From the IMG/VR virus record IMGVR_UViG_2534681772_000018: 34,178 bases of DNA. The stretch is one strand, 5' to 3'. The DNA comes from a virus. Its lineage: Duplodnaviria > Heunggongvirae > Uroviricota > Caudoviricetes. This document shows positions 3,510 to 27,628 of the stretch, piece after piece. The notes under the pieces are model-generated. The model was given only the letters and a program-made list of their open reading frames with translations, ran no database searches and was not told the origin of the DNA. Each line of letters starts with the position of its first letter. The first letter of the stretch is position 1. Both the position numbers and the translations under genes were made by a program.

Positions 3510-5775
3510 AGCCTCCGGGCGTTTTGTCCCTCCGTCAGCATTTACCGCAGGCACCGGTAAGGCGTTTACCGGTGCTTATGCATGGAACGCGCCACGCGAG
3601 GCTGTCGGGCGCGAAAGACCTCTTACACGTGACGAGATGCGTCAGGTGCAAGGTGTTTTATCCACGATTAACCGCCTGCCTTACTTTTTGCGCTCGCTGT
3701 TTACTTCACGCTATGACTACATCCGGCGCAATAAAAGCCCGGTGCACGGGTTTTATTTCCTCACATCCACTTTTCAGCGTCGTTTATGGCCGCGCATTGA
3801 GCGTGTGAATCAGCGCCATGAAATGAACACCGACGCGTCGTTGCTGTTTCTGGCAGAGCGTGACCACTATGCGCGCCTGCCGGGAATGAATGACAAGGAG
3901 CTGAAAAAGTTTGCCGCCCGTATCTCATCGCAGCTTTTCATGATGTATGAGGAACTCTGCGATGCATGGGTTGATGCGCATGGTGAAAAAGAATCGCTGT
4001 TTACGGATGAGGCGCAGGCTCACCTGTATGGTCATGTTGCTGGCGCTGCACGTGCTTTCAATATTTCCCCGCTCTACTGGAAAAAATACCGTAAAGGACA
4101 GATGACCACGAGGCAGGCATATTCTGCCATTGCCCGTCTGTTTAACGATGAGTGGTGGACTCATCAGCTTAAAGGCCAGCGTATGCGCTGGCATGAAGCG
4201 TTACTGATAGCTGTCGGGGAGGTCAATAAAGACCGTTCTCCTTATGCCAGTAAACACGCCATTCGTGATGTGCGTGCGCGCCGCCAGGCAAATCTGGAAT
4301 TTCTTAAATCGTGTGACCTTGAAAACAGGGAAACCGGCGAGCGCATCGACCTTATCAGTAAGGTGATGGGCAGTATTTCTAATCCTGAAATTCGCCGGAT
4401 GGAGCTGATGAACACCATTGCCGGTATTGAGCGTTACGCCGCCGCAGAGGGCGATGTGGGGATGTTTATCACGCTGACCGCACCGTCAAAGTATCACCCG
4501 ACACGTCAGGTCGGAAAAGGCGAAAGTAAAACCGTGCAGCTTAATCACGGCTGGAACGATGAGGCATTTAATCCAAAGGATGCGCAGCGTTATCTCTGCC
4601 GTATCTGGAGCCTGATGCGCACGGCATTCAAGGATAATGATTTACAGGTTTACGGTTTGCGAGTCGTCGAGCCACACCACGACGGAACGCCGCACTGGCA
4701 TATGATGCTTTTTTGTAATCCACGCCAGCGTAACCAGATTATTGAAATCATGCGTCGCTACGCGCTCAAAGAGGATGGCGACGAAAGAGGAGCTGCGCGA
4801 AACCGTTTTCAGGCAAAACACCTTAACCGGGGCGGTGCTGCGGGATATATCGCGAAATACATTTCAAAAAACATCGACGGCTATGCACTGGATGGTCAGC
4901 TCGATAACGATACCGGCAGGCCGCTGAAAGACACTGCCGCGGCTGTTACCGCATGGGCGTCAACGTGGCGCATTCCGCAATTTAAAACGGTTGGCCTGCC
5001 GACAATGGGGGCTTACCGTGAACTACGCAAATTGCCTCGCGGCGTCAGCATTGCTGATGAGTTTGACGAGCGCGTCGAGGCTGCACGCGCCGCCGCAGAC
5101 AGTGGTGATTTTGCGTTGTATATCAGCGCGCAGGGTGGGGCAAATGTCCCGCGCGATTGTCAGACTGTCAGGGTCGCCCGTAGCCCGTCGGATGACGTTA
5201 ACGAGTACGAGGAAGAAGTCGAGAGAGTGGTCGGCATTTACGCGCCGCATCTCGGCGCGCGTCATATTCATATCACCAGAACGACGGACTGGCGCATTGT
5301 GCCGAAAGTTCCGGTCGTTGAGCCTTTGACTTTAAAAAGCGGCATCGCCGCGCCTCGGAGTCCTGTCAATAACTGTGGAAAGCTCACCGGTGGTGATACT
5401 TCGTTACCGGCTCCCACACCTTCTGAGCACGCCGCAGCAGTGCTTAATCTGGTTGATGACGGTGTTATCGAATGGAATGACCCGGAGGTCGTGAGGGCGC
5501 TCAAAAGCGCATTAAAACACGGCCTGAGAAGACCAAACCGTCAGCAAAGAAACGGAAACCCGTTAAAACCACATGAAATTGCACCATCGGCCAGACTGAG
5601 CCGGTCGGAGCGATTGCAAATCACCCGTATCCGCGTTGACCTTGCTCAGAATGGAATCTTGCCCCAGCGATGGGAGCTTGAGGCGCTGGCGCGTGGGGCA
5701 ACCGTAAATTATGACGGGAAAAAATTCACGTATCCGGTTGCTGATGAGTGGTCGGTTTTTTCAATTAAACAATAA
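3499..5775 (+). CDS. A: Rolling-circle replication initiator (P2 gpA-like, HUH endonuclease)
   Basis: About 758-aa ORF from the first ATG at 3499 (track ORF begins at TTG 3457). HUH-type metal-binding motif PHWHMMLF and paired-tyrosine motif GYIAKYISKNIDGY are typical of rolling-circle Rep proteins; position after the early ORFs matches P2 A. Confidence 0.9.
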   Translation: MAVKASGRFVPPSAFTAGTGKAFTGAYAWNAPREAVGRERPLTRDEMRQVQGVLSTINRLPYFLRSLFTSRYDYIRRNKSPVHGFYFLTSTFQRRLWPRIERVNQRHEMNTDASLLFLAERDHYARLPGMNDKELKKFAARISSQLFMMYEELCDAWVDAHGEKESLFTDEAQAHLYGHVAGAARAFNISPLYWKKYRKGQMTTRQAYSAIARLFNDEWWTHQLKGQRMRWHEALLIAVGEVNKDRSPYASKHAIRDVRARRQANLEFLKSCDLENRETGERIDLISKVMGSISNPEIRRMELMNTIAGIERYAAAEGDVGMFITLTAPSKYHPTRQVGKGESKTVQLNHGWNDEAFNPKDAQRYLCRIWSLMRTAFKDNDLQVYGLRVVEPHHDGTPHWHMMLFCNPRQRNQIIEIMRRYALKEDGDERGAARNRFQAKHLNRGGAAGYIAKYISKNIDGYALDGQLDNDTGRPLKDTAAAVTAWASTWRIPQFKTVGLPTMGAYRELRKLPRGVSIADEFDERVEAARAAADSGDFALYISAQGGANVPRDCQTVRVARSPSDDVNEYEEEVERVVGIYAPHLGARHIHITRTTDWRIVPKVPVVEPLTLKSGIAAPRSPVNNCGKLTGGDTSLPAPTPSEHAAAVLNLVDDGVIEWNDPEVVRALKSALKHGLRRPNRQQRNGNPLKPHEIAPSARLSRSERLQITRIRVDLAQNGILPQRWELEALARGATVNYDGKKFTYPVADEWSVFSIKQ
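5350..5369 (+). promoter_or_regulatory. Candidate replication origin / gpA nick site inside the A coding sequence
   Basis: Sequence GCGCCTCGGAGTCCTGTCAA lies within A; from memory the P2 ori nick site is inside gene A with this sequence. Assigned from recollection only. Confidence 0.35.
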
Positions 5776-5976
5776 TGGCTACTGCCGCAGCGTTGTGGGA
5801 ATGCTATAGTGTTTGTAGAATTATCCCATGAAAAACAACTAATTAATCTGTTTTTCATATTGAACTAATTTTTTATGGCCACAGTTGTTAAAAAGTGAGA
5901 ACATAATCTTGTTCAAAACCTGCTTCTATATACGGAGGCTTTCGCTATAATACGCGGTCGGTTTTAGGAGGGGATA

Positions 5977-6921
5977 ATGCCAACAGTAGTTTCACTTTTT
6001 TCTGGATGCGGTGGTTCCGATGCGGGGGTTCTGAGAGCTGGCTTTGATGTGCTTATGGCCAACGATATCTTGCCGTATGCGCGCGATGTTTATATTGCCA
6101 ATCATCCAGAAACTGATTACATTTTAGGCAATATTGCTGATGTAACTACTTTTCCTAAATCTGATTTGCTAGTAGGTTGTTATCCATGTCAGGGATTCAG
6201 CCAGGGTGGTGCGCGTAAGGCCGATCGAAAAATTAATACTCTTTATTTAGAGTTTGCTAGAGCTTTAAACAATATAAAGCCTAAAGCTTTTATAGTAGAA
6301 AACGTGTCTGGTATGGTTAGAAAAAACTTCGAGCATTTGTTATCTGACCAGATCAGGGTTTTTACTGAAGCAGGTTATGCTGTTTCAGCAAAAGTTTTGA
6401 ATGCGGCTGAATATGGAGTAGCGCAGGAAAGAAAAAGAATATTTATCGTAGGAATCCGTAATGATTTCAAAGTTAAGTACGAGTTCCCTCAGCCAACTCA
6501 TGGGCCGGCGACTGGCGTCAACTATGTTACTATTAAAGATGCTATAGGGCATTTACCTGAATGGCCAGAAGGTGAATTTTATGATATGGGGTTCCATTGG
6601 TATTATATGTCTCGCAATCGTCGCCAAGATTGGGATCAAATTTCAAAGACAATAGTTGCTAATGCAAGGCATATGCCGTTGCATCCTATCAGTCCTTCGA
6701 TGGAGAAAGTAAGAACTGATGAATGGAGGTTTGTTGAGGATCGGAGAGCTCGCAGATTCAGTTTTCGAGAGGCAGCACTATTACAAGGGTTTGAGGATCT
6801 AGTGTTTCCCGAAACAAATGCTGCAAGTCTTGGCATGAAATACACGGTGGTTGGTAATGCAGTGCCTCCGCCGCTTTTTGAAGCTGTAACGAAGGCATTG
6901 CCAATAGAATTATGGGATTGA
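5977..6921 (+). CDS. DNA (cytosine-5)-methyltransferase, Dcm/M.HhaI-like
   Basis: 314-aa ORF with the canonical C5-MTase motifs: motif I FSGCGG, motif IV PCQGFS (catalytic Cys), motif VI ENV, motif VIII QERKR, motif X GNAV. AGGAGGGG precedes the ATG; TATAAT at 5946-5951 upstream. Noticeably AT-rich relative to the phage backbone. Confidence 0.9.
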   Translation: MPTVVSLFSGCGGSDAGVLRAGFDVLMANDILPYARDVYIANHPETDYILGNIADVTTFPKSDLLVGCYPCQGFSQGGARKADRKINTLYLEFARALNNIKPKAFIVENVSGMVRKNFEHLLSDQIRVFTEAGYAVSAKVLNAAEYGVAQERKRIFIVGIRNDFKVKYEFPQPTHGPATGVNYVTIKDAIGHLPEWPEGEFYDMGFHWYYMSRNRRQDWDQISKTIVANARHMPLHPISPSMEKVRTDEWRFVEDRRARRFSFREAALLQGFEDLVFPETNAASLGMKYTVVGNAVPPPLFEAVTKALPIELWD

Positions 6922-6928
6922 TAAGCTA

Positions 6929-7924
6929 TTAAGGCTCTGGATTTAATGTATAAAGTTCTTCTTCAAATTCGCGAAACCAATCAGAGGTAGTTATCGCTTC
7001 CCATTGGTTTGCCTTATCAAGTAGATATATGATCCTCAACCTATCTAATAATAATACACCAGCGGTTGCATGTGTGCTTACCCATTCGCCATTTGCTTCC
7101 CGATAGAAAACAGGCGTGAACATTGTTGATGGATGCTGGAAAGCAATTTGGAAATAGGTGGTCAGTTTTAACACGTTAGCCTCTAATGTTTTGCTTGGCC
7201 ACCCTGTTTCTTGTGCACCACATTGACCAAGAATTCCATAGTTGCTAGTTTGACCATCAGGAAATTCCACTGTAGCAATTAGGTCAAACCCAGCATCACC
7301 AGATGTGGGAGCTTTATTTATTTCCCTTGTGTTTAAACTACAAACTCCAAGATCTTTTCCTAAAATTTGTAGAGCATTCCGAAGATTCGTTCCATAATAT
7401 TTTTGCCTATCATCGGAGTTAGCATCAAAAATTCTTACGGTGCCATGTGCAGGTAAGAGAGAAATCATTGCAACTTTACATACTCTGGCAAAGCTCTTTG
7501 CCCAACGTTGTGCTGCTCCTCTAATCGACTTAAAGGATCTAAGTCTAGAGCAACAAAGGAGAAAAACATATATTCTTTGTTGTTGGTTTAGATTTTCTTT
7601 AATAATTATCTCATCACCTGAAATTATAAATGGATATATCTTTCCAAGAGCGCTTTCTCTATATTCGAGTTGTGTCCAAACATCTTCTAGTTGCTCTTCA
7701 AAACGATCATTTCTCTCTGCGTCTCCATCAATTTCTTCTTCAAAATTACATTCTTCATCAATTTCTTCAACACTTGTCATGCCGAATTTTCTTACTGAAT
7801 CTAAATCATTTTTATGCAGAGAGTTACGTCCGATATAATTAATCACCGTGAGTAACTCGGCTAAATCTGCAAACAAATGGGGAGAGTTGGGATGCATAAC
7901 TCCTACTTCAAAAGTCATCATCAC
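6929..7924 (-). CDS. Hypothetical protein (331 aa), second gene of the minus-strand cargo operon; no recognisable domain
   Basis: Long AT-rich ORF whose start overlaps the stop of the upstream ParB-like gene by 17 nt (7908-7924), and whose stop lies 7 nt from the convergent MTase stop. Acidic N-terminal stretch (EEIDEECNFEEEIDGDAERNDRFEE). No Walker, HNH or clear PD-(D/E)xK motif seen by eye. Confidence 0.6.
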   Translation of the reverse strand: MMMTFEVGVMHPNSPHLFADLAELLTVINYIGRNSLHKNDLDSVRKFGMTSVEEIDEECNFEEEIDGDAERNDRFEEQLEDVWTQLEYRESALGKIYPFIISGDEIIIKENLNQQQRIYVFLLCCSRLRSFKSIRGAAQRWAKSFARVCKVAMISLLPAHGTVRIFDANSDDRQKYYGTNLRNALQILGKDLGVCSLNTREINKAPTSGDAGFDLIATVEFPDGQTSNYGILGQCGAQETGWPSKTLEANVLKLTTYFQIAFQHPSTMFTPVFYREANGEWVSTHATAGVLLLDRLRIIYLLDKANQWEAITTSDWFREFEEELYTLNPEP

Positions 7925-9029
7925 CTCTGCTATTTTTCTCTGCTATTTCAGAACCTATAAGCTTAATATGTTTATTGATTCTTCGTGCTACTTCATGAGC
8001 CTGTCTATCATACTCTACTGTGGCAACCATGCCTGCTGCATCTATCAAAGCCGCTTCAACTTGATAAAGTAACTGGAGAAAGTCCTTAGTAATATCAGAT
8101 GTCAATTGGTAGGCCACTGCGAGTGGAGCCCCCATTCGGAATTGCTCCAATGCCTTAGGGCTACTAACAACAGCAGCTAATTCTCTTAAATTACGTGACT
8201 CTCCAACACGAGTTTTTTTATCCTCACCTTTTTTATATAACCACTCAGTTAGCTCTTTTATTTCTTTGTTCTTTAAGCTATTAGAGTTGATAATAGGATG
8301 ACTTGGTATTGTGTCTCCATCGTCTTCGATTGAAACTCCGACAAATTGGCCTAACCGCTCATCAGCAAGTGCTGTTGATAATACTGAAAATTTAATCGTT
8401 TCTTCATCTAGTTTTTCAATACCATAAAAATCATTTTCTTTAATGATTTCATACACCGCTAAAGCGTCTAGGTTACGCTTGATATGATCCCTACGACTGC
8501 CAATAGCTCTGGCAACCTCATAGTAGCGTAGCATCGGATCCTGATTTGCATTGGTATAATCAAAAAGCTGTTTAATATATCGAGCTTTTGATAAGGGCTC
8601 CCATTGTTTGACACCAGTAATATGTCTGAAACCAAGATACGGAAGAATCTCTTCTCTTGTTTGGCGCTCAATGACAGGAACACGATCGACTGTATGTTTT
8701 GCATTTGATGCAATTTCTCGTAGTCGAGCACTTGGATTTTCACATAGTGTCGGATCGCGTAATAATTTAACTGCGGATAGGCGACGGTTTCCTTCAACTA
8801 CAATGTACTTCCCCGGCGCGACACTGTCAGGAATGACAATCAATGGTTCTCCAGGGAAAAAACCATTTTCCGCAATAGCACTCATTAGATCTTCGATAGA
8901 TGTTGAGGTTGCTATGTAGTTAATCATTCCCAATTGGTCACGAGACACGCCTTCAGGAAGTCTTGGGTTTTCTGTGTCAAGTTCCAAATCATCTAGCGGA
9001 ACATAAAGTATTTCTGAATCAGCAATCAT
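7908..9029 (-). CDS. ParB/Srx-like N-terminal-domain protein (ParB-like nuclease/CTPase fold)
   Basis: 373-aa ORF; N-terminal region ...ENPRLPEG...PGEPLIVIPDSVAPGKYIVVEGNRRLSAVKLL parallels the ParB N-terminal domain, including the GxRRxxA arginine patch (compare Spo0J IVAGERRFRAA). GGAGA 6 nt upstream of ATG 9029. No parA partner gene nearby. Confidence 0.75.
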   Translation of the reverse strand: MIADSEILYVPLDDLELDTENPRLPEGVSRDQLGMINYIATSTSIEDLMSAIAENGFFPGEPLIVIPDSVAPGKYIVVEGNRRLSAVKLLRDPTLCENPSARLREIASNAKHTVDRVPVIERQTREEILPYLGFRHITGVKQWEPLSKARYIKQLFDYTNANQDPMLRYYEVARAIGSRRDHIKRNLDALAVYEIIKENDFYGIEKLDEETIKFSVLSTALADERLGQFVGVSIEDDGDTIPSHPIINSNSLKNKEIKELTEWLYKKGEDKKTRVGESRNLRELAAVVSSPKALEQFRMGAPLAVAYQLTSDITKDFLQLLYQVEAALIDAAGMVATVEYDRQAHEVARRINKHIKLIGSEIAEKNSRGDDDF

Positions 9030-9255
9030 CTGGATCTCCGTTGAACATGTCTACGAGAAGGAGCACAAAGTTATTTCATAACATGCAATATACTCATTCT
9101 GTAGCCATAAATGAATTATTCATGATGTAAGATTCGCGTTGATGTGCGTGAATTCGCAAGTAATTTTATAGCAAGGTTTGATTGGGTATCGTTAGCACTG
9201 GCGCGGTTTCAACGTATTCATGCACCTGCATTAAAACCGACCCATGAAGCGGGCG

Positions 9256-9274
9256 GGCGAGGCGGGGAAAGCAC
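9256..9274. other. cos site (19-nt cohesive end sequence of P2-like phages)
   Basis: GGCGAGGCGGGGAAAGCAC matches my recollection of the P2 cohesive end; lies in the expected place between the A-side accessory locus and Q. Confidence 0.6.
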
Positions 9275-9416
9275 TGCGCGCTGGCGGTGGTGCTGATTTT
9301 ATTTTTTCAGCGTCTGAGCGCGTCGTGATGGCGTTTAGATTGTTAGCCGGGGCGTTGGTGTGTCTGCGGGCTGTTTTGTGCGGTGGTGAGCGTGTGAGAG
9401 CGTGATGGCGGGTTGT

Positions 9417-17191: not shown

Positions 17192-17622
17192 TGACTGTGC
17201 TGATTGTGTTGTTATCGCTGGCGGTGGCCGGTCTGTTTCTGGTGAAACACAAAAATGCCAGCCTGCGCGCCTCGCTGGACAGGGCGAACAATGTCGCCAG
17301 TGGGCAGCAGACGACCATCACCATGCTGAAAAATCAGCTTCATGTTGCACTCACCAGGGCAGACAAAAACGAGCTGGCGCAGGTGGCACTGCGTCAGGAA
17401 CTGGAGAACGCCGCGAAGCGTGAAGCACAGCGCGAGAAAACCATCACGAGGTTACTCAATGAAAACGAAGATTTTCGCCGCTGGTACGGTGCTGACCTGC
17501 CTGATGCTGTGCGCCGGTTGCACCAGCGCCCCGCCTGCACCGACGCCAGTGATTGTCCACAACGCCTGCCCGAAAGTGAGTCTTTGCCCGATGCCGGGCA
17601 GCGACCCGCAGACGAACGGTGA
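17179..17622 (+). CDS. lysB: Inner-membrane spanin component LysB (Rz-like)
   Basis: 147-aa ORF with an N-terminal transmembrane segment (LMTVLIVLLSLAVAGLFLV) followed by a charged coiled-coil-like region. Confidence 0.75.
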   Translation: MSRLMTVLIVLLSLAVAGLFLVKHKNASLRASLDRANNVASGQQTTITMLKNQLHVALTRADKNELAQVALRQELENAAKREAQREKTITRLLNENEDFRRWYGADLPDAVRRLHQRPACTDASDCPQRLPESESLPDAGQRPADER

Positions 17623-21116: not shown

Positions 21117-22309
21117 ATGAGCACAAAATTCAGAACCGTTATCACCACTGCCGGTGCAGCAAAGCTGGCAGCGGCAACCGCGCCGGGAGGGCGGAAGGTC
21201 AACATTACCACGATGGCCGTCGGGGATGGCGGTGGTAAATTGCCTGTCCCGGATGCCGGACAGACCGGGCTTATCCACGAAGTCTGGCGACATGCGCTGA
21301 ACAAAATCAGCCAGGACAAACGAAACAGTAATTATATTATCGCAGAGCTGGTTATTCCGCCGGAGGTGGGCGGTTTCTGGATGCGTGAGCTTGGCCTGTA
21401 CGATGATGCGGGAACGTTAATTGCCGTGGCGAACATGGCCGAAAGTTATAAGCCAGCTCTTGCCGAAGGCTCAGGGCGTTCGCAGACCTGCCGCATGGTC
21501 ATCATCGTCAGCAGTGTGGCCTCAGTGGAGCTGACCATTGACACCACAACGGTGATGGCGACGCAGGATTACGTTGATGACAAAATTGCAGAGCACGAAC
21601 AGTCACGACGTCACCCGGACGCCTCGCTGACCGCAAAAGGTTTTACTCAGTTAAGCAGTGCGACCAACAGCATGTCTGAAATGCTTGCCGCAACGCCAAA
21701 AGCCGTTAAGACGGTAATGGATGAAACGAACAAGAAAGCGCCATTAAACAGCCCTGTACTGACCGGAACGCCAACGACGCCAACTGCGCGACAGGGAACG
21801 AATAATACTCAGATCGCAAACACGGCTTTCGTTATGGCCGCGATTGCCGCCCTTGTAGACTCGTCGCCTGACGCACTGAATACGCTGAACGAGCTGGCGG
21901 CGGCGCTGGGCAATGACCCGAATTTTGCTACCACCATGACTAATGCGCTTGCGGGTAAGCAACCGAAAGATGCTACCCTGACGGCGCTGGCGGGGCTTGC
22001 TACTGCGGCAGACAGGTTTCCGTATTTTACGGGGAATGATGTTGCCAGCCTGGCAACCCTGACAAAAGTCGGGCGGGATATTCTGGCTAAATCGACCGTT
22101 GCCGCCGTTATCGAATATCTCGGTTTACAGGAAACGGTAAACCGAGCCGGGAACGCCGTGCAAAAAAATGGCGATACCTTGTCCGGTGGACTTACTTTTG
22201 AAAACGACTCAATCCTTGCCTGGATTCGAAATACTGACTGGGCGAAGATTGGATTTAAAAATGATGCCGATGGTGACACTGATTCATTCATGTGGTTTGA
22301 AACGGGGGA
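21117..22309 (+). pseudogene. H: Tail fibre protein H, 5' fragment, interrupted by IS2
   Basis: ORF begins at 21117 after I and reads ...FMWFETGD up to the IS2 boundary at 22310. The track ORF 21117..22481 continues into IS2 sequence before a stop. Confidence 0.85.
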
Positions 22310-22320
22310 TGGATTTGCCC

Positions 22321-23226
22321 CTATATTTCCAGACACCTGTTATCACTTAACCCATTACTGGCCTGCTGCCGCAGATATTCCCGTGGCGAGCGATAACCCA
22401 GTGCACTATGCGGATGCCATTCGTTATAATGCTCGAACGCCTCTGCAAGGTTCTTTGCTGCCGTTAACCCGTCTGGTTTAGGCATGATACTGATGTAGTC
22501 ACGCTTTATCGTTTTCACGAAGCTCTCTGCTATGCCGTTACTCTCCGGACTCCGCACCGCCGTGTTCTTCGGTTCAAGCCCCAACATCCGGGCAAACTGC
22601 CGTGTTTCATTAGCCCGGTAGCATGAACCATTATCCGTCAGCCACTCTACTGGAGACGCCGGAAGCTCGTTGCCGAAGCGGCGTTCCACCGCTCCCAGCA
22701 TTACGTCCTGTACTGTTTCACTGTCGAAGCCGCCCGTAGTGACTGCCCAGTGCAGTGCCTCACGGTCACAGCAGTCCAGCGCGAACGTGACTCGCAGTTT
22801 TTCTCCGTTATCACAGCGGAACTCGAACCCGTCAGAGCACCATCGTTGATTGCTTTCTTTCACGGCCACTTTGCCAGTATGTGCCCGTTTCGATGGCGGT
22901 ACAGCGGTTTTTCGCTCAAGCAACAGCGCATTCTGGCGCATGATCCGGTAAACACGTTTGGCATTGATCGCAGGCATACCATCAAGTTCGGCCTGTCTGC
23001 GAAGCAGCGCCCATACCCGACGATAACCATACGTGGGCAGCTCTCCGATAACATGGTGTATACGGAGAAGCACATCCGTATCATCTGAGTGACGGCTGCG
23101 GCGACCATCTTTCCAGTCATCGGTTCGTCTGAGAATTACGTGCAACTGCGCACGCGACACCCGGAGACAACGGCTGACTAAGCTTACTCCCCATCCCCGG
23201 GCAATAAGGGCGCGTGCGCTATCCAC
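22321..23226 (-). CDS. insD: IS2 transposase OrfB (InsD, DDE catalytic domain); normally expressed as an OrfAB fusion by -1 frameshift
   Basis: 301-aa [33 protein letters not shown]... recognised as IS2 InsD; overlaps the end of orfA in the -1 frame. Confidence 0.9.
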
Positions 23227-23549
23227 TTTTTTGCACGCCCGTATTCAACGGCTTCTTTAAGGAGTTCATTTTCCATCGTTTTTTTGCCGAGCAGGCGCTG
23301 GAGTTCTTTAATCTGCTTCATGGCAGCAGCAAGTTCAGAGGCAGGAACGACCTGCTCTCCTGCGGCCACAGCAGTAAGACTTCCCTCCTGGTATTGCTTG
23401 CGCCAGAGAAATAACTGGCTGGCTGCCACACCGTGTTGCCGGGCAACAAGGGAGACCGTCATTCCCGGTTCAAAACTCTGCTGAACAATAGCGATCTTTT
23501 CCTGTGTAGTACGCCGTCTGCGTTTCTCCGGTCCTAAGACATCAATCAT
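23184..23549 (-). CDS. insC: IS2 transposase OrfA (InsC, HTH DNA-binding)
   Basis: 121-aa ORF from ATG 23549 ([29 protein letters not shown]...) recognised as IS2 InsC. Confidence 0.9.
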
Positions 23550-23640
23550 CTGCTCTCCAATGACTAGTCTAAAAACTAGTATTAAGACTATCACTTATTT
23601 AAGTGATATTGGTTGTCTGGAGATTCAGGGGGCCAGTCTA

Positions 23641-24474
23641 GGGGATAACGGCAATGAATATTTCAAATGGAGAAGCCGCCAGAGTACTACAACAAAAGAC
23701 CTGATGAATCTTAAATGGGATGCTTTGTATGTTCTTGTCAATGCCATTGTAAATGGCGAAGTCATATCAAAATCAGCAAACGGCCTACGTATTGCTTATG
23801 GTAATTACGGATTCTTTATTCGTAATGATGGTTCAAATACATACTTCATGTTGACAAACTCCGGTGACAACATGGGGACTTATAACGGATTAAGGCCATT
23901 ATGGATTAATAACGCTACTGGCGCTGTTTCGATGGGGCGTGGCCTTAATGTTTCAGGGGAGACGCTTTCAGACCGTTTTGCTATTAACAGCAGTAATGGT
24001 ATGTGGATTCAGATGCGCGATAACAACGCTATCTTTGGGAAAAATATAGTTAACACTGATAGCGCTCAGGCGTTGCTTCGCCAGAATCACGCTGACCGCA
24101 AGTTCATGATAGGTGGACTGGGGAACAAGCAATTTGGCATCTACATGATTAATAACTCAAGGACAGCCAATGGCACCGATGGTCAGGCGTACATGGATAA
24201 TAACGGTAACTGGCTTTGTGGCTCGCAAGTTATTCCCGGCAACTATGGCAATTTTGATTCCAGATATGTGAAAGATGTTCGACTTGGTTCACAGCAATAT
24301 TATGGAGTTAACAACTGGCAAACATGGAATTTCCAGTGCCCGTCAGGTCATGTATTGTCTGGTATTAATGTTCAGGATACAGGGTCCAACTCTGCCGATA
24401 ATATAGCGGGCGTTTATTACAGACCCGTTCAAAAGTATATAAATGGCACCTGGTATAATGTAGCGAGCGTTTAA
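23641..24474 (+). pseudogene. H: Tail fibre protein H, 3' fragment (C-terminal receptor-binding region)
   Basis: Reading frame continues ...DNGNEYFKWRSRQ... to a TAA at 24472-24474. Removing IS2 plus one copy of the 5-bp duplication (1336 bp) joins it in-frame to the 5' fragment, giving an uninterrupted H ORF of about 673 codons. The track ORF 23560..24474 begins inside IS2. Confidence 0.85.
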
Positions 24475-24475
24475 T

Positions 24476-25003
24476 ATGATGCACTTAAAGAACATAAAAG
24501 CGGGTAACGCTAAAACACTGGAACAGTATGAGTTAACAAAGAAACACGGAGTTATCTGGCTTTACTCTGAGGACGGAAAAAACTGGTATGAGGAAGTGAA
24601 GAACTTTCAGCCAGACACAATAAAGATTGTTTACGATGAAAATAATATTATTGTCGCTATCACCAGAGATGCTTCAACGCTTAATCCTGAAGGTTTTAGC
24701 GTTGTTGAGGTTCCTGATATTACCTCCAACCGACGTGCTGACGACTCAGGTAAATGGATGTTTAAGGATGGTGCTGTGGTTAAACGGATTTATACGGCAG
24801 ATGAACAGCAACAACAGGCAGAATCACAAAAGGCAGCGTTACTTTCCGAAGCGGAAAGCGTTATTCAGCCACTGGAACGCGCTGTCAGGCTGAATATGGC
24901 GACGGATGAGGAACGTGCACGACTGGAGTCATGGGAACGCTACAGCGTTCTGGTCAGCCGTGTGGATCCTGCAAATCCTGAATGGCCGGAAATGCCGCAA
25001 TAA
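24476..25003 (+). CDS. G: Tail fibre assembly chaperone (P2 gpG)
   Basis: 175-aa ORF, same length as P2 G, immediately downstream of H. Confidence 0.85.
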
Positions 25004-25218
25004 GTTGTATGAGCTCTAGTGTGGGCTTACATATCTATGGCACAGAGTAAAGCCTAATCTGACAGTCCACTCTGTGCCAGAGGTGGGCATTGCTGATGTC
25101 ATAAAATATTATGCCAGCAGCCGTCTTAGGGGAGTGTTTACATTTCAATGATCGGGTATGATCTCGGCATGTTAATGGTTTATTACTAAATGCTTGCGCC
25201 TATCTTTATGGAGGAGTA

Positions 25219-26118
25219 ATGAGTGGTATTCGTATAACTCAGGCTATTGATAACAATCAGATTTTAGTCAATGTAAATACTTTTAATTATAGTGTTAATC
25301 CCTATCCACTCAAATGTCCTGACCCAAATTGCTCTGCTCATTTGGTGTATGTCAAAAGCCATATTCGTCGGAGTTTTAATAAAACCTTGCATATCCCCGC
25401 CTTCTTTAGACTGGAAAAAAATTTCACGCATGACAAATTATGTCAGTATGGAACTTCAGGATTGAATACAATTTATGCAAGTGATTCCAGTCATGATATC
25501 AGCCGTGCGCTTGCCACAGGTAATAATATATTCCGTATACATATACTCGATGAAGATGATATCTCTAAATTAAGCAGAAAAGCTGCAGCTATGCAGGCAA
25601 ATCCACCTTCTGATACTACAGACCGCGTTTATGTCAAGAGAGGTCGGAAAGCCCCCTATGTGAAGAACATGGATAGCTTACGGGAGATCTATGAATATGG
25701 AAAAGCTCACCCCAACAAGAGAAACAGCATAAAAATTGTTACTGGAACAAGTACTGTAACGTGGTCTGATTTTTTCTATGAAACAACGCAGTTAGAACGA
25801 TTGTCAACTTACCTCCAGAAAGTAAAAATAGCTCAGGTTGCTGTAATTATGAAAGTGCATGTGGCGAGAATCCCTATGGCGAAATTTAATTATCGACACT
25901 TCATTGAAGGTTCGCCAATGAGGATAAAAGGGGGCTTTAATATATATCCTACGATTCAATTAGGAAATGTTACTCCAAAATTATTTCCGTTGAGTAGCAT
26001 TGTCATGGTACTCGGTAAATTTACTATTCCAACAAATAGAAAAATGATAATGGATCCAACATTTGAGCGTGAAGTCAGAACCATAGTTTCTAGTGAAGAG
26101 CAAGTGCTAATTCTTTGA
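25219..26118 (+). CDS. Hypothetical protein (299 aa) at the P2 Z/fun accessory locus; candidate defence/exclusion gene
   Basis: AT-rich ORF between G and FI, the position of Z/fun in P2. GGAGGAG precedes the ATG. N-terminal Cys/His cluster (KCPDPNCSAHL...H...C). No similarity to structural genes that I can recognise. Confidence 0.6.
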   Translation: MSGIRITQAIDNNQILVNVNTFNYSVNPYPLKCPDPNCSAHLVYVKSHIRRSFNKTLHIPAFFRLEKNFTHDKLCQYGTSGLNTIYASDSSHDISRALATGNNIFRIHILDEDDISKLSRKAAAMQANPPSDTTDRVYVKRGRKAPYVKNMDSLREIYEYGKAHPNKRNSIKIVTGTSTVTWSDFFYETTQLERLSTYLQKVKIAQVAVIMKVHVARIPMAKFNYRHFIEGSPMRIKGGFNIYPTIQLGNVTPKLFPLSSIVMVLGKFTIPTNRKMIMDPTFEREVRTIVSSEEQVLIL

Positions 26119-26312
26119 AATCAAGAGGATTTGGCTCGGATGATTATGTGCGGCTTATAACCATAACGTAATGAGCGGATTTTTCTACTGCTTTTTATCA
26201 TTTTGGTTAACTAAAACTAATCTCTGCTCCTCGCTCAAAGCAGACTGTCAGATTTGATAGCGTTTTGGCTATGTAAATTGTCAGTCGGAAAATGAGTGAG
26301 TACAAATCAGGA

Positions 26313-26342
26313 CAGGCGGGCGAATTGCCTGCCTTTTCTTTA
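26313..26342 (+). terminator. Rho-independent terminator downstream of the Z/fun-locus cargo gene
   Basis: AGGCGGGC-GAATT-GCCTGCCT hairpin (one G-U pair) followed by TTTTCTTTAT. Confidence 0.55.
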
Positions 26343-26437
26343 TCTGTTGTTTCATCCACTGACCAGCCAGGTCAAATAGCGTCTCATGCTCTGCACAACA
26401 GAAAATAGTTGCACCCATTAACCACGGAGTTAAACGG

Positions 26438-27628
26438 ATGAGCGACTATCATCATGGCGTGCAGGTGCTGGAGATTAACGACGGCACCCGCGTCATTTCC
26501 ACTGTATCCACCGCCATTGTCGGCATGGTCTGCACGGCCAGCGATGCGGATGCGGAAACCTTCCCCCTCAATAAACCGGTGCTGATTACCAATGTGCAGA
26601 GCGCAATTGCAAAGGCTGGTAAAAAAGGCACGCTGGCGGCATCGTTGCAGGCCATCGCTGACCAGTCAAAACCGGTCACCGTTGTTGTGCGTGTGGAAGA
26701 CGGCACCGGCGACGACGAGGAAACGAAACTCGCGCAGACCGTATCCAATATCATCGGCACCACCGACGAAAACGGTCAGTACACCGGACTGAAAGCCCTG
26801 CTGGCGGCGGAGTCGGTAACCGGTGTTAAACCGCGTATTCTCGGCGTGCCGGGGCTGGATACCAAAGAGGTGGCTGTTGCACTGGCATCAGTCTGTCAGA
26901 AGCTGCGCGCTTTCGGGTATATCAGCGCATGGGGCTGTAAAACCATTTCCGAGGTGAAAGCCTACCGCCAGAATTTCAGCCAGCGTGAGCTGATGGTCAT
27001 CTGGCCAGATTTCCTCGCATGGGATACGGTCACCAGTACCACCGCCACCGCGTATGCCACCGCCCGTGCGCTGGGTCTGCGCGCTAAAATCGACCAGGAG
27101 CAGGGCTGGCATAAAACGCTGTCCAATGTCGGGGTAAACGGTGTTACCGGCATCAGTGCCTCTGTATTCTGGGATTTGCAGGAGTCCGGCACCGATGCTG
27201 ACCTGTTGAACGAGTCAGGTGTCACAACGCTGATTCGCCGTGACGGTTTCCGCTTCTGGGGTAACCGTACCTGCTCTGATGACCCGCTGTTCCTCTTTGA
27301 AAACTACACCCGCACCGCGCAGGTGCTGGCCGACACGATGGCTGAGGCGCACATGTGGGCGGTGGACAAGCCCATCACCGCAACGCTGATTCGCGACATC
27401 GTTGACGGCATCAATGCCAAATTCCGTGAGCTGAAAACAAACGGCTATATCGTGGATGCGACCTGCTGGTTCAGCGAAGAATCCAACGATGCGGAAACCC
27501 TCAAGGCCGGAAAACTGTATATCGACTACGACTATACACCGGTGCCTCCTCTTGAAAACCTGACCCTGCGCCAGCGTATTACCGATAAATACCTGGCAAA
27601 TCTGGTCACCTCGGTTAACAGCAATTAA
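26438..27628 (+). CDS. FI: Contractile tail sheath protein (P2 gpFI)
   Basis: 396-aa ORF, same length as P2 FI; GGAG upstream; followed by the tube gene. Confidence 0.9.
   Translation: MSDYHHGVQVLEINDGTRVISTVSTAIVGMVCTASDADAETFPLNKPVLITNVQSAIAKAGKKGTLAASLQAIADQSKPVTVVVRVEDGTGDDEETKLAQTVSNIIGTTDENGQYTGLKALLAAESVTGVKPRILGVPGLDTKEVAVALASVCQKLRAFGYISAWGCKTISEVKAYRQNFSQRELMVIWPDFLAWDTVTSTTATAYATARALGLRAKIDQEQGWHKTLSNVGVNGVTGISASVFWDLQESGTDADLLNESGVTTLIRRDGFRFWGNRTCSDDPLFLFENYTRTAQVLADTMAEAHMWAVDKPITATLIRDIVDGINAKFRELKTNGYIVDATCWFSEESNDAETLKAGKLYIDYDYTPVPPLENLTLRQRITDKYLANLVTSVNSN

Follow-up and report, generated by a model that had tools for sequence, protein, structure and literature searches.

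We analysed a 34,178-nucleotide stretch of DNA (IMG/VR virus record IMGVR_UViG_2534681772_000018), referred to here as the window, which is a complete P2-like prophage. Its Z/fun accessory slot, between the tail-fibre assembly gene G and the sheath gene FI, is occupied by a single gene, orf44, which is almost certainly a cargo gene. The predicted fold of its product, gp44, makes nucleic-acid binding likely, and the genomic evidence tips the balance slightly towards a role in defence. Taking these together, we put at about 0.5 the probability that gp44 is a non-enzymatic, nucleic-acid-binding lysogenic-conversion protein that takes the lysogen's side in conflicts between phages.

The model that we propose has orf44 as a self-contained, horizontally exchanged lysogenic-conversion ('moron') gene of the Z/fun hotspot, a module that would move among different mobile elements, from one cargo slot to another. 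gp44 would be expressed in the lysogen and shield it from other phages by binding invader DNA, replication or recombination intermediates, or the complex of single-stranded-DNA-binding protein (SSB) with DNA. Such binding would block replication of the invader, with nothing being degraded. We offer this specific blocking mechanism tentatively, by analogy with other systems.

An exchangeable gene between G and FI

The interval between G and FI contains one long open reading frame (ORF) in the ORF listing, at 25219-26118 on the plus strand, with an ATG start and 299 codons. The initial annotation, made from the sequence alone, had described a 900-bp AT-rich ORF with a GGAGGAG ribosome-binding site and a 215-bp upstream spacer, and each of these features was borne out: gene G ends at 25003, and the G+C content across 25001-26500 is 0.38-0.42, compared with 0.54-0.61 in the flanking structural genes; the ORF itself has about 39% and the flanks about 56%. 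The region is 100% identical to a prophage of E. coli TW10590.

The same annotation placed the gene in the P2 Z/fun accessory slot and took it for horizontally acquired cargo, and our comparisons uphold both points. In sister P2-like phages the slot, bounded by the same conserved flanks, is filled by other, unrelated single genes, most P2-like phages lack orf44, and close homologues occur in contexts other than P2. Because the viable phages Wphi and Yersinia phage HQ103 carry orf44 yet most P2-like phages do not, the gene is non-essential. A structural or morphogenetic tail protein, for example a tail-fibre chaperone or adaptor, would account for a position among tail genes and for nothing else that we observed. 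Such a protein should not be missing from P2 and most P2-like phages with unrelated genes in its place, nor have homologues in non-phage islands and on plasmids; PHROGs assigns no structural category, and the predicted fold is of OB/zinc type rather than fibre- or chaperone-like. A structural role is effectively excluded.

orf44 had also been called an orphan, which it is not. It corresponds to orf44/gp44 of coliphage Wphi (99.7% identical in DNA, 100% in protein) and to RefSeq WP_000014362.1, labelled hypothetical protein, and it matches phrog_7195 (function unknown) over residues 1-299 of 299 with E = 5.8e-218. The same gene is present in Yersinia phage HQ103 and in one 'Peduovirus P2' record, in each case between G and FI. 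Its distribution at this locus, proposed earlier as a check, was determined in 5426 complete E. coli genomes: 115 have the cassette together with both flanks, always on the chromosome, and 1033 match part of the region, mostly the right-hand flank alone.

More distant relatives were found by three routes. A word-indexed search returned 12 clusters from Escherichia, Serratia, Morganella, Proteus and Leclercia, with identities of 65-99%. An exhaustive hidden Markov model (HMM) search returned 151 representatives at E <= 1e-3, of which 48 reach E <= 1e-10, so that the family comprises at least 151 sequence clusters at 50% identity; nearly all of these members are 295-330 residues long and match mainly over residues 1-200, and those named come from Kushneria, Vreelandella, Billgrantia, Limnobacter and Paraburkholderia. 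Searches with tblastn added Vibrio, Pseudoalteromonas, Klebsiella and Bacillus plasmids. The relatives belong to Gamma- and Betaproteobacteria or lie on Bacillus plasmids. A search of GTDB genomes for related loci with one alignment yielded no confirmed locus. Pairwise ratios of nonsynonymous to synonymous substitution between the E. coli gene and those of Serratia, Proteus, Morganella, Leclercia and one metagenome contig are 0.07-0.23, and orf44 is therefore under purifying selection.

We delimited the cassette by aligning its flanks with P2, Wphi, P2-EC67, P22H4, P22H1 and L-413C. Conservation among these six phages ends at about 25080 on the left and restarts at about 26228 on the right, from which a swappable unit of about 25083-26227 follows. 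The features of the locus are as follows.

24476-25003: tail-fibre assembly gene G, left neighbour of orf44
25035-25082, unstranded: left flank of the Z locus, conserved and containing a 14-bp hairpin (25035-25048 / 25069-25082), from repeat search and alignment; it ends where P2-like phages cease aligning
25056-25080, unstranded: left arm of a 25-nt inverted repeat, AATCTGACAGTC..., from the repeat search; the arms are 80% complementary and 1149 nt apart
25083-26227, plus strand: cassette-specific DNA of about 1.15 kb, made up of orf44 with its own upstream region and a 3' tail of 109 nt
25084-25112, plus strand: weak candidate sigma-70 promoter, TGGGCA-17-TATTAT, with 9/12 consensus matches
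25210-25216, plus strand: Shine-Dalgarno sequence GGAGGAG, two bases ahead of the orf44 ATG, read from the sequence
25219-26118, plus strand: orf44 coding sequence, 299 residues, 34 kDa, isoelectric point (pI) 9.8
25315-25332, plus strand: codons of C33 (25315-25317) and C38 (25330-25332), predicted first zinc knuckle, C-x4-C, in 100/100 family members
25429-25443, plus strand: codons of H71 (25429-25431) and C75 (25441-25443), predicted second zinc knuckle, H-x3-C, in 100/100 family members
26230-26254, unstranded: right arm of the 25-nt inverted repeat, at the start of the conserved right flank
26313-26342, plus strand: terminator-like hairpin (26313/26314-26334) and T-run, from the terminator scan, kept in P2 and Wphi
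26345-26412, plus strand: pF late promoter of the tail sheath operon, given for context only, with an Ogr/activator site (26345-26370) and transcription starting at about 26412
26438-27628: sheath gene FI, right neighbour of orf44

Both arms of the inverted repeat lie within backbone DNA shared with P2 and correspond to what the P2-EC67 record (AJ512685) labels 'left/right inverted repeats' of its Z region. In all P2-like phages compared, the Z cassette is bracketed by conserved inverted repeats with the core AATCTGACAGTC / GACTGTCAGATT, accompanied by an additional local hairpin on the left side; the P2-EC67 counterparts are at 3-115 and 1255-1345 of AJ512685. These bracketing repeats may serve as a recombination substrate for cassette swapping.

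Two of the earlier statements on expression signals held in part. Promoter-like sequence upstream of the gene does include a candidate, at 25084-25112, which is the sole sense-strand candidate upstream of orf44 in the promoter scan, but the scan returned 10 sites against 4.6 +/- 2.3 expected in AT-rich DNA, about twice the number in shuffled sequence, and we treat this weak match as a lead and not as evidence. P2-EC67 has -35 and -10 elements annotated for its unrelated cargo at the same relative position. The hairpin at 26313-26342, formerly read as a downstream terminator of the gene, is present (the terminator scan gave 4 sites against 1.0 expected in shuffles), but it lies outside the cassette: the hairpin and all DNA from about 26228 on are conserved P2 backbone, found also in P2, where the cargo differs and lies on the opposite strand. 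By alignment, then, the hairpin belongs to the phage and not to the cassette. It lies directly upstream of the Ogr-binding site of pF, as judged by alignment to the P2 annotation (pF positions were mapped from P2 features 17555-17583 and 17626), and can stop both orf44 and V-operon read-through transcripts ahead of the F operon. Rfam gave no RNA family match anywhere in the window.

Four invariant residues and a predicted OB fold

The initial annotation had noted an N-terminal Cys/His cluster, CPDPNCSAHL, and no recognisable motif. An alignment of 100 sequences, 16-73% identical to gp44, supersedes the second statement and corrects the first. Exactly four columns are invariant in all 100 members, namely C33, C38, H71 and C75. 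The cluster is indeed present, as residues 33-42, and supplies C33 and C38; its histidine, H41, is variable, and the other two putative ligands are H71 and C75. This pattern suggests a zinc site of the ribbon or treble-clef type, built from two knuckles. R106, Y147, W182, F185 and Q295 are conserved in at least 90% of members, and further aromatic and basic positions, including arginine and lysine, are kept by class, whereas no acidic position is conserved in 80% or more of the alignment. All four segments of gp44 are basic, and its pI of 9.8 and the conserved arginine, lysine and aromatic positions lend indirect support to nucleic-acid binding. No transmembrane segment or signal peptide was found in the protein (maximum 19-residue Kyte-Doolittle mean of 1.23), which is predicted to be soluble, and a membrane superinfection-exclusion protein was rejected on this basis.

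AlphaFold2, run from the 100-sequence alignment, gave a confident model with a pLDDT (per-residue confidence) of 92.7 and a pTM (overall fold confidence) of 0.75; this run supersedes one from 13 close homologues, with a pLDDT of 45.9. We took the domain layout from the order of secondary-structure elements in the model and not from coordinates, as follows.

Strands 8-18, 83-89, 104-107 and 136-143, with helix 94-99: putative OB barrel
Residues 41-65: putative four-stranded zinc ribbon, inserted in the OB barrel between the ligand pairs
Residues 112-127: predicted long helix
Residues 151-203: predicted small alpha/beta unit
Residues 204-299: predicted C-terminal beta-barrel

In the model four beta-strands separate the two predicted knuckles, and the N-terminal barrel appears to be five-stranded and closed, like those of known OB domains. 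The structural resemblances of the model are to OB-fold nucleic-acid binders only: the OB domains of BRCA2, many MCM N-terminal domains (OB plus zinc subdomain), MCM10, RPA, CST and Teb1, and also HIN-200 DNA sensors and the anticodon-binding domains of class IIb aminoacyl-tRNA synthetases. Foldseek searches of the PDB and of BFVD viral models were concordant, returning SSBs, MCM and AspRS, with whole-chain TM-scores (a measure of overall structural similarity) of only 0.2-0.25. Because the whole-chain scores are this low, the modelled domains of gp44 look familiar while the full architecture does not. The structure prediction proposed at the outset thus points to a nucleic-acid binder, and neither PHROGs nor the model indicated homology to a structural protein. 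As modelled, the architecture is that of a stoichiometric binder, and its target would most likely be single-stranded or structured DNA.

Sequence searches were largely silent. gp44 alone had no Pfam match at E <= 10 and nothing useful in NCBIfam or among PDB sequences; among 100 family members there was no Pfam match at E <= 0.01 and none that was consistent, and a profile of the 100 had zero matches to PDB sequences. In PADLOC-DB 2.0.0, gp44 matched 0 families at E <= 10, and the 100 members gave six scattered single matches (E of 3e-4 to 9e-3), none of them consistent. There was no enzyme fold among the structural matches. A nuclease effector of the PD-(D/E)xK, HNH or GIY-YIG type was rejected, there being no conserved acidic position, no nuclease structural match and no Pfam match. 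The longer family members have no known effector domain fused to them; an apparent NeuB/SAF 'fusion' in one member looks like a chimeric or mis-called protein. Internal duplication was also rejected, as hhalign shows no similarity between the N- and C-terminal domains.

Genomic company and competing readings

We surveyed 16 independent contexts of homologues outside P2. The gene is solitary in all of them, and recurring neighbours belong to the carrier backbone only. There is no neighbour gene conserved across contexts, and the non-coding flanks are unrelated between genera. Upstream ORFs in Kushneria and at a metagenome locus are similarly spaced yet unrelated, and a partner gene was rejected. 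By a plain count, at least 8 of the 16 contexts, those heading the list below, have recognisable defence genes no farther than 8 kb away. The surroundings include the following.

Serratia: integrase island with a type I restriction-modification (R-M) system (HsdR/HsdS)
Morganella: integrase-proximal end of a lambdoid prophage, with a reverse transcriptase and an AAA_15 ATPase adjoining
A context with TIR, SLFN_AlbA_2, SymE and Fic
A context with AbiTii, SIR2-STAND and a PLD nuclease
A context with BREX PglZ, GmrSD_N, AbiEii and Peptidase_U49
An island adjoining smpB, with a P4-type primase fragment and RVT_1
A Vibrio plasmid with AbiH, GIY-YIG and large P-loop proteins
A Tn7/insertion-sequence (IS) region with PIN-TPR-GreABC
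Proteus: bacteriocin cluster
Leclercia: AlpA/FRG island
Serine-recombinase elements and megaplasmids as further carriers
A lambdoid phage with an 88%-identical copy directly after the replication genes

Several of these loci show further detail. The homologues of Limnobacter (4368-6866) and of a metagenome contig (9073-11643) are followed by the same module of a small ORF, DUF2924, a large serine recombinase and a 145-residue ORF, and because of this shared downstream module both are placed at the recombinase end of one type of integrative element. The metagenome homologue lies directly after a pair encoding a helix-turn-helix protein and an M78 (ImmA/IrrE-like) peptidase. On Vibrio tubiashii plasmid pFP31 the homologue (7001-7900) appears to be split into two annotated ORFs at 7001-7378 and 7562-7900 and is possibly a frameshifted pseudogene; it lies in a series of small genes on one strand, AbiH and GIY-YIG among them, which resembles a cassette array.

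The candidacy of gp44 as an anti-phage protein rests on location and neighbourhood, and several observations weigh against it. gp44 matches no PADLOC-DB 2.0.0 model. The contexts in Kushneria, Vreelandella, Pseudoalteromonas and Bacillus are uninformative, and guilt by association cannot tell defence from counter-defence or from other mobile-element cargo. The orf44 promoter is a weak consensus match. orf44 is oriented as are the late V and F operons and the scan found no canonical terminator between G and orf44, and for these two reasons its expression may fall late in lytic growth, additionally or even exclusively. A defence protein that lacks an effector domain is also unusual.

The orientation of orf44 and the missing terminator equally favour the main rival, a counter-defence or pro-phage factor that would bind DNA or RNA and aid its carrier phage in lytic growth. 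In one form of this explanation gp44 would shield single-stranded DNA or DNA ends, or soak up an immune signal such as the complementary DNA of a retron or a defence-associated reverse transcriptase (DRT). The 88%-identical lambdoid copy, lying just after replication genes in a region taken as early-transcribed, speaks for it, as do two homologues located 1-3 kb from reverse transcriptases. A recent preprint describes phage SSB-like proteins that modulate defences based on reverse transcriptases (bioRxiv 10.64898/2026.04.29.721553), and we count this in its favour. Many homologues, however, are in chromosomal defence or integrative islands with no phage around, which is the usual habitat of defence genes, and the phenotypes linked to the P2 Z locus have so far been defence phenotypes. 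We consider a counter-defence role unlikely.

More improbable still is a DNA-binding regulator, or another form of lysogenic conversion unrelated to phages, that would act on host expression or on stabilisation or segregation of the element. The basic character of gp44, its predicted zinc site and its predicted nucleic-acid binding would all suit such a protein, some contexts lack defence genes, and non-defence cargo is also carried by P2 hotspots (PMC9122126). Against this, Pfam searches found no helix-turn-helix or known regulator domain, the family is spread over at least five element types, among which neither a target region nor the flanking DNA is conserved, and defence genes recur beside the homologues. 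We retain, at the odds given at the outset, the reading of gp44 as a nucleic-acid-binding protein that would act on behalf of the lysogen.

The hotspot in context and comparison with known systems

The Z region was reportedly first described by Nilsson et al. in 2004. The locus is a recognised hotspot: Vassallo et al. 2022 reported that defence genes are enriched at this second locus of P2-like phages, which holds fun and three of their validated systems (PMC9519451), and Egorov et al. recovered the same locus (bioRxiv 10.1101/2024.10.15.618418). The cargo in other phages is diverse. Fun(Z) of P2 (NP_046777) lies in the same slot on the minus strand and has 528 residues, and according to its annotation the cloned gene blocks T5. 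ORF1 of P2-EC67, also in this slot, has an Mrr_cat restriction-endonuclease domain (Pfam). The Z-locus cargos of P22H4, P22H1, L-413C and E. coli N61 encode 251, 181, 259 and 194 residues with no Pfam or PADLOC match, and thus five of the six other cargos tested, Fun(Z) among them, match neither database, P2-EC67 ORF1 being the exception. The Z hotspot is largely unannotated.

The other P2 hotspot of this prophage, between gpA and gpQ (about 5800-9300 of the window), also has a low G+C content of 0.35-0.44. It contains the following ORFs.

5977-6921, plus strand: ORF of the gpA-gpQ hotspot
6929-7924, minus strand: ORF of the gpA-gpQ hotspot
7908-9029, minus strand: ORF of the gpA-gpQ hotspot

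Its cargo consists of a C5 cytosine DNA methylase (PF00145; PADLOC DruM/MTase_II), a ParB-N-like protein matching PADLOC PD-Lambda-5_A at E = 1.6e-28, and a 331-residue protein with no match. By these matches the set is a compact PD-lambda-5-like R-M/abortive-infection (Abi) set, a recognised defence system that the prophage carries besides orf44. Elsewhere, the tail-fibre gene H (21117-24474) is interrupted on the minus strand at about 22321-23594 by an IS3-family element with orfA (23184-23594, HTH_Tnp_1) and orfB (22321-23226, rve). The N-terminal part of H stops at about 22481 and the C-terminal part resumes at 23560, and for strain TW10590 RefSeq flags H as a pseudogene. Production of functional tail fibres by the prophage is therefore improbable, whereas the cargo genes remain intact.

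Going by the 1033 genomes that share part of the region, about one in five complete E. coli genomes contains a P2-like prophage. New immune systems have demonstrably come from P2 hotspots, and Z/fun has been mined far less than gpA-gpQ. The ORF itself entered GenBank with the Wphi genome. In the literature searched no paper mentions WP_000014362, and the Wphi papers there concern repressors and Cox only. What is new here is the family definition, the Cys-Cys-His-Cys (CCHC) site, the OB-fold architecture, the absence of an enzyme domain and the recurrent company of defence islands; these are absent from Pfam, PADLOC 2.0.0 and the searched literature, and the family is so far undescribed. An anonymous ORF thereby becomes a defined, testable family of about 150 diverse homologues, with a delimited cassette, a confidently predicted fold and four predicted zinc ligands. 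Should gp44 prove protective, it would add a rare and mechanistically informative defence protein that has no catalytic domain, and the family would merit a database profile; should it not, it would still be a widespread predicted DNA-binding protein of mobile elements.

The validated systems of P2 hotspots (PD-T4, PD-lambda and PD-T7 of Vassallo et al., and those of Rousset) resemble orf44 as small hotspot cargo that is often annotated as hypothetical, but no PADLOC model consistently matches gp44 or the 100 members. The MCM N-terminal domain and MCM10 share just 5-14% identity with gp44, which lacks the AAA+ helicase domain and differs in its ligand pattern (C-x4-C ... H-x3-C), its extra helical and C-terminal beta-barrel parts and a TM-score of about 0.2-0.25. 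With neither sequence homology nor linkage to an AAA+ core, gp44 is not a member of the MCM N-terminal family, and we regard that domain as a fold-level analogue suggested by the model. Set beside RPA, CST, Teb1, the OB folds of SSBs and HIN-200, gp44 has no evident SSB-typical oligomerisation or acidic C-terminal tail. Membership of SSB (PF00436) or HIN-200 (PF02760) was rejected, with no Pfam match for gp44 at E <= 10 or for the 100 members at E <= 0.01.

Comparison with hhalign led us to reject Fun(Z), Tin and P2-EC67 ORF1 as homologues of gp44. Fun(Z) shares with orf44 the slot between G and FI, the same flanks and inverted repeats, and the status of a single non-essential lysogenic-conversion gene. 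The proteins themselves are unlike, with an hhalign probability of 0.24% and lengths of 528 and 299 residues, and the genes lie on opposite strands. P2 Tin (NP_046797) is likewise a single prophage protein with no known enzyme domain and is annotated as excluding T-even phages, but its hhalign probability with gp44 is 0.09% and it sits in the other P2 hotspot. Tin excludes T-even phages by poisoning gp32, the single-stranded-DNA-binding protein of T4, and by analogy it would be the nearest precedent for the non-catalytic blocking proposed here. A bolder and speculative reading is that gp44 founds a new form of enzyme-free, single-protein immunity, in which a zinc-ribbon/OB-fold protein, distributed over Proteobacteria and Firmicutes by phages, islands and plasmids, would halt phage replication purely by binding. 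gp44 would then sense a nucleic-acid structure or an SSB-DNA complex produced by the invading phage, resembling HIN-200 in its logic as a prokaryotic counterpart or generalising the poisoning of gp32 by Tin.

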